A DNA stretch of 64,000 bases from an uncultured Gemmatimonadaceae bacterium (GCA_963817955.1 CAWFQK010000004.1:1280001-1344000), one strand, 5' to 3'; shown: positions 13,973 to 16,265, counted from the first letter of the stretch. Notes: generated by a model from the sequence alone, not told the origin. Made by a program: numbers and translations.

Positions 13973-14071
13973 AAGTGCCGCCTCGTGTGCCGGTCAGGAT
14001 CGACAATGCGGCACACGAGGCTCAAAATCATTAGGGCAAATCACAGTTCACTGTGAGTGCTTTCCCGACTT

Positions 14072-14659
14072 TTATCGAAGATCGGGATTGAGCTCGGGAG
14101 CTTTCAGCTCATCGTGACCGAGCTCACGCATGTCCGCCGCGCGTGGCGGTGCGCCGGTGATCATGGCCTTCATGGCATTGAAGAGCACGCGCGGCGTGCG
14201 ACGATCGTGTTTCGAGTACACCGCCGTGTCCGCCTGAACGAGAATGAGGCCGATGCGCGGATCGTGCGGGCCACCGTCGCGCCTGCCGTCCCCTTCGTCG
14301 CCGAGCCACATCTTCCAGTCGGGCTGATAGAGCGAGTCGATGAGATCGCGATCGCGCGACAGAATCGCATGGCCGCTCACACTCACCCACTCCTTGGAAC
14401 GGCTGTTGAAATACGACAGGTTCACGTGCGGATCGCGCGCGAGCTCTTCGTATTTCTCGCTCTCGATGTTGGTCATGAACCACAGGTCGGTGCCCGTGGT
14501 GCGGCGCTGCGTCTGCATTGGCCGCGACACGAGAGAACCATCGGCGCGACGCGTCGTCACCATGGCGGTTTCAATGCCGTCGATGAGCGAGTACAGGTCG
14601 TCGAGCTTGTTCGCGAGCGGGACTTCGTTGTCGTGGGATTTTTCGGCGGAGTCAGTCAT
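14072..14659 (-). CDS. General stress protein 26 / pyridoxamine 5'-phosphate oxidase-like
   Basis: AMVTT, LVSRPM, LWF, VNLSY, WVSVSG, DPRI. Confidence 0.85.
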   Translation of the reverse strand: MTDSAEKSHDNEVPLANKLDDLYSLIDGIETAMVTTRRADGSLVSRPMQTQRRTTGTDLWFMTNIESEKYEELARDPHVNLSYFNSRSKEWVSVSGHAILSRDRDLIDSLYQPDWKMWLGDEGDGRRDGGPHDPRIGLILVQADTAVYSKHDRRTPRVLFNAMKAMITGAPPRAADMRELGHDELKAPELNPDLR

Positions 14660-14661
14660 GG

Positions 14662-14709
14662 GTGTCATCCTGAGGGAGCGAGATCCTTCGCATTCGCTCA
14701 GGATGACAC
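14662..14709. repeat. Palindromic REP-like repeat (GTCATCCTGAG...CTCAGGATGAC), copy 1
   Basis: 13-bp arms GTGTCATCCTGAG / CTCAGGATGACAC; same family at 19782 and 48775. Confidence 0.85.
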
Positions 14710-14716
14710 GGCAGTT

Positions 14717-15202
14717 TCAATGCCGTAGGGCCATGACCGCTTCCTCGACATCGGCGGCGTGATTCTGTGGTTTCACCTTCTCGAAAACCGTCGCGATCCG
14801 ACCTCTGGGATCAATGACGAATGTCGTCCGGTTCACACCCCAATACCGTTTGCCGAGCATACTCTTTTCCGTCCACACACCGTACCGGTCGGCAATGGCA
14901 TGATCGGTGTCGGCGATCAGCCTGTACGGAAGCTGATATTTCGCTTTGAACTTGCGGTGCGACTCTACCGAGTCGGGACTCACACCGAGCACGACAGCAT
15001 CGAGTCCCTCGAACCGAGGGAGGGCGTCTCGAAACGAGCACGCCTCGATGGTTCAGCCGAAGGTGTTGTCCTTGGGATAGAAGAACAACACCACGACGCG
15101 GCCCTTGAAGTCCGAGAGCGACACGCGCTTGCCCTGGTCGTCGAGCGCCGTGAAATCGGGGGCCTTCACCCCCGTAGTCACCTGACTGATTGCATTGCCC
15201 AT
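14717..15202 (-). CDS. bcp: Peroxiredoxin BCP/PrxQ with in-frame TGA (15053-15055) at the peroxidatic Cys; probable selenoprotein, 161 aa
   Basis: ORFs 15053..15283 and 14717..14992 are one frame: KAPDF...[10 protein letters not shown](TGA)-TIEACSFRD...RTTFVID. Confidence 0.85.
14998..15050 (-). promoter_or_regulatory. Candidate SECIS / UGA-recoding RNA structure
   Basis: Starts 2 nt after the UGA; CAUCGAG/CUCGAUG stem enclosing two hairpins. Confidence 0.6.
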
Positions 15203-15324
15203 GAATCCATCCTGGCGTTGGCCGCAAGGTGGTTGTGGTCCTGTTCTGATGGACACACAGTGAACGGAGCAATTCGGTTGCATCTTGAGTGCCGTTTCCG
15301 TTCACCCGCTGGCGTGCGGAAGGC

Positions 15325-16233
15325 TTACAGCGGTTCCCCGCCCATGAGCGCGGCCATGATCGCCTTCTGGATGTGGAGCCGATTCTCAGCCTCATCCCAG
15401 ACCCGGCTCTGCGGCCCGTCAATGACCTCCGCGGCTACTTCCTCGCCGCGGTGCGCGGGTAGGCAGTGCAGGAAGATCGCGTTCTTATCGGCCTCTTTCA
15501 TCAGCTTGGAATTCACCGTGAATCCGGCGAACGCGCGCTCGCGATCTTTCTGCTCCTGCTCCTGGCCCATCGAGGCCCACACGTCGGTGCTGACGACGTG
15601 CGCTCCATGCGCCGCTTCCATGGGGTCCCGGAGGACGCGGACCTTTGCGACCGTCTGCGCGCGCTCGAGCAGACGGTCGGCCGGCTCGTAGCCTTCCGGA
15701 CAGGCTATATCGAGGTCGAAGCCAAATCGGTACGCCGCGTTGATCCAGGAGTTCGCCATGTTGTTGCCGTCGCCGATCCACGCATACTTCTTGTCGCGCA
15801 CCCCACCGAGATGCTGGCGCACCGTGAGCAGATCGGCGAGGACCTGGCAGGGATGCAGCAGATCGGTGAGGCCGTTGATCACCGGGACATCGGCGTACTT
15901 GGCCAATTCCACGATGTCCTGGTGCGCAAAGGTGCGGATCATGATGCCGTCCACATACCGCGACAAGACGCGCGCGGTGTCGGCGATCGGCTCCCCGCGA
16001 CCCAGTTGCACGTCGCGAGGCGAGAGAAAGAGGGCGTGCCCACCAAGCTGATAGGTGCCGGCCTCGAATGACACGCGCGTTCTCGTGCTCGACTTCATGA
16101 AGATCATCGCGAGCGTCTTTCCCGCCAGCGGCTTCTTGTTGTACTTCCCTTCGCGCATACACTCGGCGATGGCGAACAGTGAGTCGAGCTCGTCGGAAGA
16201 GAAGTCGGGAATGGCGAGGAAGTCGGAGGTCAT
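15325..16233 (-). CDS. argF: Ornithine carbamoyltransferase
   Basis: SSTRTRVSFE, HPCQ, GDGNN, DVWASMG, FLHCLP. Confidence 0.96.
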   Translation of the reverse strand: MTSDFLAIPDFSSDELDSLFAIAECMREGKYNKKPLAGKTLAMIFMKSSTRTRVSFEAGTYQLGGHALFLSPRDVQLGRGEPIADTARVLSRYVDGIMIRTFAHQDIVELAKYADVPVINGLTDLLHPCQVLADLLTVRQHLGGVRDKKYAWIGDGNNMANSWINAAYRFGFDLDIACPEGYEPADRLLERAQTVAKVRVLRDPMEAAHGAHVVSTDVWASMGQEQEQKDRERAFAGFTVNSKLMKEADKNAIFLHCLPAHRGEEVAAEVIDGPQSRVWDEAENRLHIQKAIMAALMGGEPL

Positions 16234-16265
16234 GTGGGGGCGGGTTGCTGGTGGAGACGACAACG

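Follow-up and report, generated by a model that had tools for sequence, protein, structure and literature searches.

A candidate two-hairpin SECIS downstream of an in-frame UGA in a peroxiredoxin gene of Gemmatimonadota

Introduction

Which RNA signal would direct the insertion of selenocysteine (Sec) at an in-frame UGA when the structure that follows the codon is not a single hairpin? This question is raised by a peroxiredoxin gene in a 64,000-nt stretch of DNA (hereafter the window, meaning the whole stretch analysed) from an uncultured Gemmatimonadaceae bacterium (GCA_963817955.1, CAWFQK010000004.1:1280001-1344000). Bacterial selenoprotein genes are still routinely mis-annotated, because SECIS elements are variable and the working model is that of a single hairpin with a loop G 16-37 nt after the UGA.

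As given in section 5 of a review, the consensus model for bacterial SECIS elements (bSECIS) calls for an upper stem of 4-16 bp capped by a loop of 3-9 nt, with a minimum free energy (MFE) of -7.5 kcal/mol or lower, for a G as the first or second loop nucleotide with a G or a U after it, and for a distance of 16-37 nt from the UGA to the loop; a subset of bacterial SECIS elements misfits this model, and its members are not described in that section of the review (PMC13188914 section 5). A published model of SelB puts the SECIS loop G normally ~20 nt downstream of the UGA, with a modelled 57 Å gap to the SECIS loop bridged by about 13 nt (PMC4605307 section 15).

A literature search with few terms found no description of a branched or tandem bacterial SECIS. 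The publications retrieved for SECIS together with three-way junctions were eukaryotic or archaeal by title or mentioned the subject in a reference list only, and among those retrieved for Gemmatimonadetes, selenocysteine and SECIS, nothing was on topic by title.

The bcp gene, its in-frame UGA and the Sec machinery

The gene, its UGA and its neighbours lie as follows, in window coordinates:

14717-15202, minus strand: bcp/PrxQ-type peroxiredoxin gene, from the ATG at 15202 to the true stop, TGA, at 14719-14717, with a Pfam match
15053-15055, minus strand: proposed Sec-UGA at the peroxidatic Cys position
15325-16263, minus strand: ornithine/aspartate carbamoyltransferase, flanking bcp
14072-14668, minus strand: pyridoxamine-phosphate-oxidase-like protein, flanking bcp

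The bcp gene has 161 codons with the in-frame UGA at codon 50, and its read-through protein matches the Pfam AhpC-TSA family over residues 12-138 (E=1e-42). The UGA ends the active-site motif PxxxTxxU, which is PKDNTFGU in the read-through translation, and the resolving Cys lies 5 residues downstream of the Sec position. Homologues have either Cys (TGC/TGT) or UGA in the same column, and after the UGA the frame and the catalytic residues run on for 111 codons. The AhpC-TSA domain, the PxxxTxx[C/U] motif and the Cys/Sec pairing with homologues are together all the features that define a selenoprotein BCP/PrxQ. The source genome (4.53 Mb) also encodes selA (545 bits), selD, a selB that scores over the curated cut-off and a tRNA-Sec of 73.8 bits (gathering score 47). 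A sequence-only reading of the window had placed a recoding element just 3' of this UGA, and the placement stands, the codon being a true UGA of the Sec type whose genome has all the machinery for Sec, with selA, selB and selD genes as well as tRNA-Sec. From the motif, the homologue column and this machinery, we infer that Sec is inserted at the bcp UGA.

The nearest named relatives of the gene are from Gemmatimonadaceae and Gemmatimonadota MAGs, at 68-73% identity. Two genomes of the same genus as the source genome, G131 and G337, carry UGA-type bcp genes (loci L236 and L238) whose proteins are just 62% identical to that of the window. Set beside the 68-73% of other named Gemmatimonadaceae, this value suggests that the history of the gene may be at odds with the species tree.

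Between the bcp stop and the next gene, at window 14662-14709, lies a perfect 13-bp inverted repeat, GTGTCATCCTGAG ... CTCAGGATGACAC, the 3' arm of which overlaps, on the mRNA, the predicted AUG of that next gene (14668). Since the arm occurs in 7 copies in the genome, on either strand, the repeat may be a small repeated palindromic element.

Predicted RNA structure downstream of the UGA

Nucleotides are numbered with the U of the UGA as 1, so that the window coordinate is 15056 - n. The predicted elements, all on the minus strand, are:

nt 6-12, window 15044-15050, minus strand: P1 5' strand CAUCGAG, from the MFE fold, kept in part of clade A only (see below)
nt 13-32, window 15024-15043, minus strand: P2 hairpin GCGU-G-CUCG / UUU / CGAG-ACGC, from the MFE fold
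nt 35-51, window 15005-15021, minus strand: P3 hairpin UCCCUCG / GUU / CGAGGGA, the proposed SelB-binding hairpin
nt 42-44, window 15012-15014, minus strand: P3 apical loop G42 U43 U44, G42 being the synonymous third base of an Arg codon
nt 52-58, window 14998-15004, minus strand: P1 3' strand CUCGAUG, from the MFE fold
nt 67-73, window 14983-14989, minus strand: CUCGGUG, an alternative 3' partner of the P1 5' strand, from the MFE of the 75-nt context

P2 pairs nt 13-16 plus 18-21 with 25-32, leaving G17 bulged and U22-24 in the loop, and P3 pairs nt 35-41 with 45-51. The sequence-only reading had described P1, P2 and P3 as a three-way junction of 22 Watson-Crick pairs in 53 nt at 14998-15050, and the sequence does fold exactly in this way: the MFE structure of the surrounding 71 nt (window:14990-15060:-) is the three-way junction, at -31.2 kcal/mol. 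For dinucleotide shuffles of this context the mean is -24.15 with an sd of 2.93, which puts the observed fold at z = -2.41; among 200 shuffles, 5 are as stable. Against 2000 synonymous-codon shuffles drawn from the codon usage of the source genome, nt 4-60 fold at -28.1 vs -18.8 +/- 3.5 (13/2000 as low), while P2 and P3 together (nt 13-51) reach -19.0 vs -10.8 +/- 2.6 (5/2000 as low), which bears out the expectation that the fold exceeds such controls in stability. The codons that had been singled out as unusual for this DNA are indeed minor synonyms in the genome, with usages of 0.19 for TTT, 0.12 for CGA, 0.07 for CCT and 0.15 for GGA.

When the context is extended to 75 nt, P1 drops to a pairing probability of just 0.10 because its 5' strand CAUCGAG can pair with CUCGGUG at 67-73; P2 and P3 are the robust parts, with probabilities of 0.82-0.99. 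With nt 1-12 blocked, as they would be under the ribosome, the tandem of P2 and P3 is the MFE structure of the window's sequence and of 14 of 23 aligned sequences, and the probability of P3 is at least 0.84 in 19 of the 23. An Rfam scan of window 14000-16000 (E <= 10) returned no family matching the minus-strand element; a chance-level match to chrB-a on the plus strand (15018-15095, E = 2.4, 19.1 bits with a gathering score of 43.9) overlaps its coordinates.

Set against the consensus SECIS model, both hairpins lie within the limits on loop, stem and MFE, P3 with a 3-nt loop, 7 bp and -10.7, and P2 with a 3-nt loop, 4+4 bp and -12.4. The position is likewise as the model has it, after a Sec-UGA in the coding region of a genome with selA, selB, selC and selD. 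The remaining rules divide the two: the G rule is followed by P3 (G42 U43, 69/69 relatives) and broken by P2 as folded (UUU), whereas the 16-37-nt spacing is followed by P2 (18 nt) and exceeded by P3, for which nt 4-41 amount to 38, or to 37 if G41-C45 are counted as loop. No single hairpin of the element conforms cleanly to all of the consensus rules.

Samples of relatives and phylogeny

Relatives were collected in several searches. In a protein-guided scan limited to one genome per species, 80 loci were recovered, with TGA at the Cys codon in 15, all of them from Gemmatimonadota MAGs. A pattern scan (upstream motif plus TGA-AC) gave at least 84 UGA-type bcp sites in at least 80 loci from many phyla. 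A search at the protein level covered 401 genomes of the phylum, 239 of which yielded a bcp-like gene. Automatic TGA flags proved unreliable for the Cys position (8 of 12 fetched flagged regions have TGC, as does the flagged locus L255), so codons were read directly in 41 fetched loci, which added six UGA types; one more, L305, came from the covariance-model search described below. A metagenome scan contributed 81 motif rows, 56 of the UGA type and 25 with Cys. The tallies of the phylum, selD and covariance-model searches include the unpublished genomes G097, G418 and G157, the loci of which were excluded from every analysis.

The main alignment, gap-free and cleared of identical 60-mers, holds 69 distinct sequences of the UGA type that carry the [P/S]RF motif; 45 are from metagenome contigs, and the named relatives are Gemmatimonadota MAGs. 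The sequences are related, and shuffle and rank tests therefore overstate their independence. In a FastTree phylogeny of 172 proteins, the UGA types with P3 form two clades: clade A (..PRFEGLD.., 34 of the 69 aligned sequences), which includes the window, is placed among the Cys types of the phylum, and clade B (..PRFGEID.., 35 of the 69) has the Cys types L021 and L025 nested inside it.

P3 is conserved by covariation and confined to UGA-type genes

P3 is the most uniform part of the element, with 99.6% of its cells paired in the 69 sequences and 161/161 in the set of 23. Four of its seven pairs (35-51, 36-50, 37-49 and 39-47) show changes on both sides among the 69 sequences, as in CCCUCG/CGAGGG vs UCCCCG/CGGGGA, and the minimum number of independent compensatory events is about four. 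The loop G42 U43 U44 is invariant. U43 and U44 are set by a Phe codon; G42, at the third position of an Arg codon, is free to vary and is nevertheless G in 69/69 UGA types. This Arg codon is CGG in 23/23 UGA types, compared with CGC in 12, CGG in 6, CGA in 2, CGT in 1 and AGA in 1 of the 22 Cys types with the same P-R-F residues.

The comparison of UGA-type with Cys-type genes, which had been proposed as a check on the element, shows it to be specific to UGA-type genes and absent from Cys-type homologues, including those with the same residues. The MFE of the P3 region averages -10.6 in UGA types (n=23) vs -3.0 in Gemmatimonadota Cys types (n=40), and all seven P3 pairs are found together in 0 of the 22 Cys types with PRF residues (maximum 5) and in 0 of the 25 metagenome Cys rows (maximum 6). 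In L021 and L025, the Cys types nested within clade B, P3 has been destroyed, mostly at synonymous sites. Among the matches listed for other phyla, the seven pairs are found in 0 of 76 UGA types without PRF, the maximum being 6 of 7 in one sequence, and the one non-Gemmatimonadota UGA type listed with PRF (L120) has 4 P3 pairs.

P2 is a constant hairpin with a variable loop

A stable hairpin occupies the place of P2 in all 69 UGA types, with an MFE of -6.5 to -14.5 for the 24-nt region and means of -11.5 in clade A and -11.3 in clade B. Fixed-column pairing reaches only 81-83%, because the register and the upper stem differ between groups: the latter may be CUCG/CGAG (bulged on the 5' side), GUGUUCC/GGGACAC, GCGA/UCGC (bulged on the 3' side) or CGCG/CGCG. 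The MFE loop contains a G in 18 of the 69 sequences and none in the other 51 (UUU closed by A-U, UUCC, AUU), and column 21 may be C, U, G or A. P2 thus cannot be the G-loop hairpin in most members. In the window itself P2 reads CG-UUU-CG, and opening of G21-C25 would give a loop GUUUC that fits the G rule at the canonical distance, so that in this particular gene P2 might itself serve as a SelB site.

The separation between gene types is less sharp for P2 than for P3. The P2 region of the 23 UGA types has a mean MFE of -11.4, with all values at or below -8.5; in 40 Gemmatimonadota Cys types the mean is -6.5, with 10 of the 40 at or below -8.5 and one, L254, at -14.9. The Ala codon within P2 is GCG in 23/23 UGA types vs 25/40 Cys types. 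P2 is in part a by-product of A-C-x-F-R-D residues written in GC-rich codons, and not purely a product of selection.

Two Cys-type loci deserve mention. L254 (genome G173) has a perfect GCGUGCGG-GUU-CCGCGACGC hairpin after its TGT (Cys) codon, and L398, a metagenome contig, has clade-B residues but only 5 of the 7 P3 pairs. Judged from these sequences, both look like recent Sec-to-Cys conversions with SECIS-like remnants.

The three-way junction is a trait of the window's subclade

P1 has 6-7 of its 7 pairs in 22 of the 34 clade A sequences and in 0 of the 35 of clade B, and RNAalifold applied to 23 sequences predicted P2 and P3 with P1 absent. At pair 7-57, clade A has A-U in 14 sequences, G-C in 10, G-U in 2 and no pairing in 8; Ile or Val at codon 2 tends to accompany GAU or GAC at a synonymous Asp site, with exceptions. 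The three-way junction therefore characterises the subclade to which the window belongs, not the element, whose conserved design is two tandem hairpins. The sequence-only reading had suggested a branched, possibly lineage-specific recoding element outside the single-hairpin model. The lineage specificity and the misfit have both been upheld, and the three-way junction as the conserved unit has not.

Other Sec genes of the genome and of the phylum

A search of the genome for similar folds after other in-frame UGAs was another check that had been proposed. We tried a de novo scan for read-through UGAs with GC3 and hairpin filters and dropped it, the bcp gene itself failing the GC3 filter. Family searches took its place and yielded two genes, selD and an fdhA-like one, each of which has a single in-frame TGA. 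The fdhA-like molybdopterin oxidoreductase (G000, the source genome, C4:1425901-1427836) has its UGA at ..CNRT-U-HAPS.., and its SECIS is the single hairpin GUCGUC-GGUCU-GACGGC with loop G23 U24. The Sec-type selD (G000, C4:449343-450454), directly upstream of the tRNA-Sec gene on the same strand, has its UGA at ..FARCAG-U-AAKLG.. and a hairpin at 12-19/25-32 with loop CGGGC. Across 22 genomes of the same family, a set from which two unpublished genomes were left out, the UGA-type selD genes keep at least 7 of the 8 pairs in 19, and the loops at 20-24 are CGGGU in 12, CGGGC in 6 and four other variants once each. In these two genes the fold of the bcp element does not recur: fdhA and selD have canonical single hairpins. 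These hairpins indicate that the SelB of the window's lineage reads ordinary hairpins with GG(U) near +22-24. The corresponding bcp motif, G41 G42 U43, lies 19 nt further out than the fdhA/selD loop motif, and P2 is 20 nt long.

In the source genome, a covariance model built on the element hit only the bcp site (83.1 bits; 150 of ~4770 candidates scored); it matched in 26 of 151 genomes of the phylum. The 16 matches inspected comprise 4 UGA-type bcp genes, 11 Cys-type bcp genes with lower scores and 1 unrelated sequence, and within this scope (26/151 genomes matching, 16 matches inspected) the element was found in no other gene family.

In other phyla, the UGA-type bcp genes among the matches listed commonly have one hairpin at the position of P2, often with a G in the loop, e.g., GCGUGCGG-GUU-CCGCGACGC with the loop at 21-23, or GCGUCGC-AGUUUC-GCGACGC. 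From its position and loop, we take this hairpin to be an ordinary SECIS.

Several sequences outside the phylum are worth recording individually. L116, from a record of Effusibacillus consociatus (Bacillota), is a UGA-type bcp with two tandem hairpins at nt 13-52, the first of 6 bp with loop GAUUU and the second of 9 bp with loop GGUU at nt 40-43; this single sequence may represent the tandem design too, whether by a separate origin or through relationship. L159, a Vulcanimicrobiota MAG, has a long irregular hairpin at nt 22-65 whose sole G-containing loop, AGUUC, is at 41-45; it has no P2-like side hairpin, and the P2-position hairpin typical of its relatives is degenerate. In four Poribacteria MAG loci (L112, L121, L133 and L148), two UGA-type bcp-like genes stand in tandem with their active-site motifs 453 nt apart.

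We also considered whether the second hairpin is exclusive to Gemmatimonadota. A loose definition (stem of at least 5 bp, a G as the first or second loop nucleotide, and a loop beginning at nt 34 or later) proved uninformative, matching 11/77 UGA types and 22/95 Cys types of other phyla, and the proposal of exclusivity was set aside.

Proposed reading of the element

We propose that the UGA encodes Sec and that the SECIS of this lineage has a two-hairpin form in which P3 is the SelB site and P2 a folded spacer, a reading to which, taken as a whole, we give a probability of roughly 0.6. Its parts differ in strength. That the element is the SECIS of the bcp gene is very probable. P3 is likely the hairpin bound by SelB, given that its G-U loop is invariant at a synonymous site, that it strictly accompanies the UGA and that its loop, read as GGUUC with the closing G-C opened, resembles the GGUCU of fdhA. 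The role of P2 as a geometric spacer is more tentative, at close to but below even odds, and is drawn from the nucleotide arithmetic and from the observation that the hairpin is conserved while its loop is not.

Under this reading, the UGA at 15055-15053 would be decoded as selenocysteine at the peroxidatic position of the BCP/PrxQ peroxiredoxin, and the C-terminal winged-helix domains of SelB would bind P3 through the loop G42 U43 U44, or through GGUUC if the closing G-C opens. P2 would be the counterpart, by position and stem sequence, of the single bcp SECIS of other phyla, its loop G having mostly been lost, and would now serve as a folded spacer. The E. coli SECIS is described by an 11-nt spacing rule, with its loop nucleotides numbered G23 and U24. 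With P2 folded, 9 + 2 = 11 unpaired nt would separate the UGA from the base of P3, which could then be presented at the mRNA entrance at approximately the place of a canonical hairpin, despite a loop G that lies 19 nt further along the sequence. P1 would be an optional closing helix; with the UGA in the A site, its 5' strand (nt 6-12) would be inside the ribosome, so P1 could not exist at the moment of decoding.

It is possible, though we hold it with some doubt, that the SECIS is bipartite in this strict sense, i.e., that P2 loops out 20 nt to bring P3 to the canonical distance and that P2 is the ancestral SECIS hairpin, turned into a spacer or roadblock once an amino-acid change had removed its loop G. 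Several observations count against the spacer: the window's P2 could expose G21, 18 of the 69 P2 loops have a G, P2 follows in part from the protein sequence, and the distant loop of L159, which stands without a side hairpin, suggests that such a loop may work without a spacer, making one possibly dispensable. The near-fit with the published spacing also counts against displacement, the model in the review section cited allowing up to 37 nt and P3 lying at 38 or 37 (PMC13188914 section 5).

Alternative explanations

The evidence on P2 bears on two further assignments of function. If P3 binds SelB and P2 acts as a roadblock, pausing the ribosome or hindering RF2, or is a slowly decaying relic of the ancestral SECIS, the start of P2 at 9 nt after the UGA, where it would sit at the mRNA entrance, is readily accommodated, as are the distant loop of L159 and the formation of P2-like hairpins partly from residues alone. 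Parallels for a roadblock exist in the eukaryotic Sec redefinition element and in frameshift-stimulating hairpins. A relic, however, would not be expected to keep GCG in 23/23 sequences and a stable hairpin in all 69 through changes of register and upper-stem sequence, and a pause role is compatible with a spacer role. This explanation is on the whole unlikely, though for P2 itself a roadblock role 9 nt after the UGA is an alternative equally open to that of spacer. Less likely still is that P2, at the canonical distance, is the hairpin bound by SelB and that P3 is auxiliary, for instance by binding SelB a second time with low affinity, by stabilising the fold or by causing a pause. P2 does lie exactly where UGA-type bcp genes of other phyla have their single SECIS hairpin and is more stable in UGA than in Cys types, and a G is in the P2 loop of 18/69 relatives and could enter it, as G21, in the window. 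Against this, 51/69 P2 loops have no G and column 21 varies, while G42 is invariant at a synonymous site, and the fdhA and selD hairpins read by the same SelB have GG in their loops.

We regard as highly improbable a fold unrelated to Sec decoding, whether a chance GC-rich structure, an mRNA-stability element or a structure beside a UGA that is a real stop or a pseudogene lesion. GC-rich coding DNA does fold well in general, and z against dinucleotide shuffles is only -2.4. Nevertheless, the structure is confined to UGA types and has decayed in the nested Cys types, equal conservation of P3 was looked for in Cys-type orthologues and not found, and the frame and catalytic residues continue for 111 codons after a UGA that is kept in 69 relatives, with the Sec machinery complete.

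Implications

The bcp element offers a concrete class outside the single-hairpin model, supported by covariation, and one that comes with internal controls, namely Cys-type orthologues, the canonical fdhA and selD hairpins read by the same SelB, and the single-hairpin bcp genes of other phyla. It forms a natural test of how strictly the distance from UGA to loop must be kept and of the ability of an intervening hairpin to reduce that distance. For search tools, it supplies a pattern that may at present be missed or assigned to the wrong hairpin. If the bipartite reading is true, the spacing rule of Sec decoding would be one that is followed in space and not along the sequence.

Comparison with known systems

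Compared with the canonical bSECIS of the E. coli fdhF type, which the genome's own fdhA and selD also have, the bcp element is alike in that P3 has a 7-bp stem, a small G-U loop and an MFE below -7.5, in that its place is within coding sequence, right behind a Sec-UGA, and in that the genome's SelB has the C-terminal part. It differs in that the G-U loop is at nt 42-43 and not at about 20-24, in that a conserved 20-nt P2 lies between the UGA and the G-loop hairpin, and in that a closing helix turns the pair into a three-way junction in part of the bcp clade.

The SECIS elements of UGA-type bcp/Prx genes from other phyla (delta-proteobacterial MAGs, Binatia, Acidobacteriota, Myxococcota, Chloroflexota and Eremiobacterota/Vulcanimicrobiota) share with it the protein family, the Sec position, the codons and the lower stem of P2, GCGUGC..GCGACGC. 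Many of these, in contrast, have one hairpin only, with a GUU (21-23) or an AGUUUC loop, whereas in the window's lineage the P2 loop is mostly without a G and P3 has been added.

In eukaryotes, the Sec redefinition element (SRE) is a hairpin a few nt after the UGA that works with a separate, distal SECIS, which lies in the 3' UTR and is bound by SBP2. The likeness is that of a two-part signal, a near hairpin plus a downstream factor-binding structure. It is an analogy without homology: both parts of the bcp element lie within 50 nt of coding region, and SelB would bind the RNA directly.

On the protein side, a table of prokaryotic selenoproteins includes selenoprotein Prx (PF00578, TxxU motif; PMC13188914 section 7), and a section on the Sargasso Sea set gives 43 Prx genes (PMC1088965 section 7). 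Beside these long-known selenoproteins, the bcp protein of the window is an ordinary member, and it is the RNA signal alone that differs.
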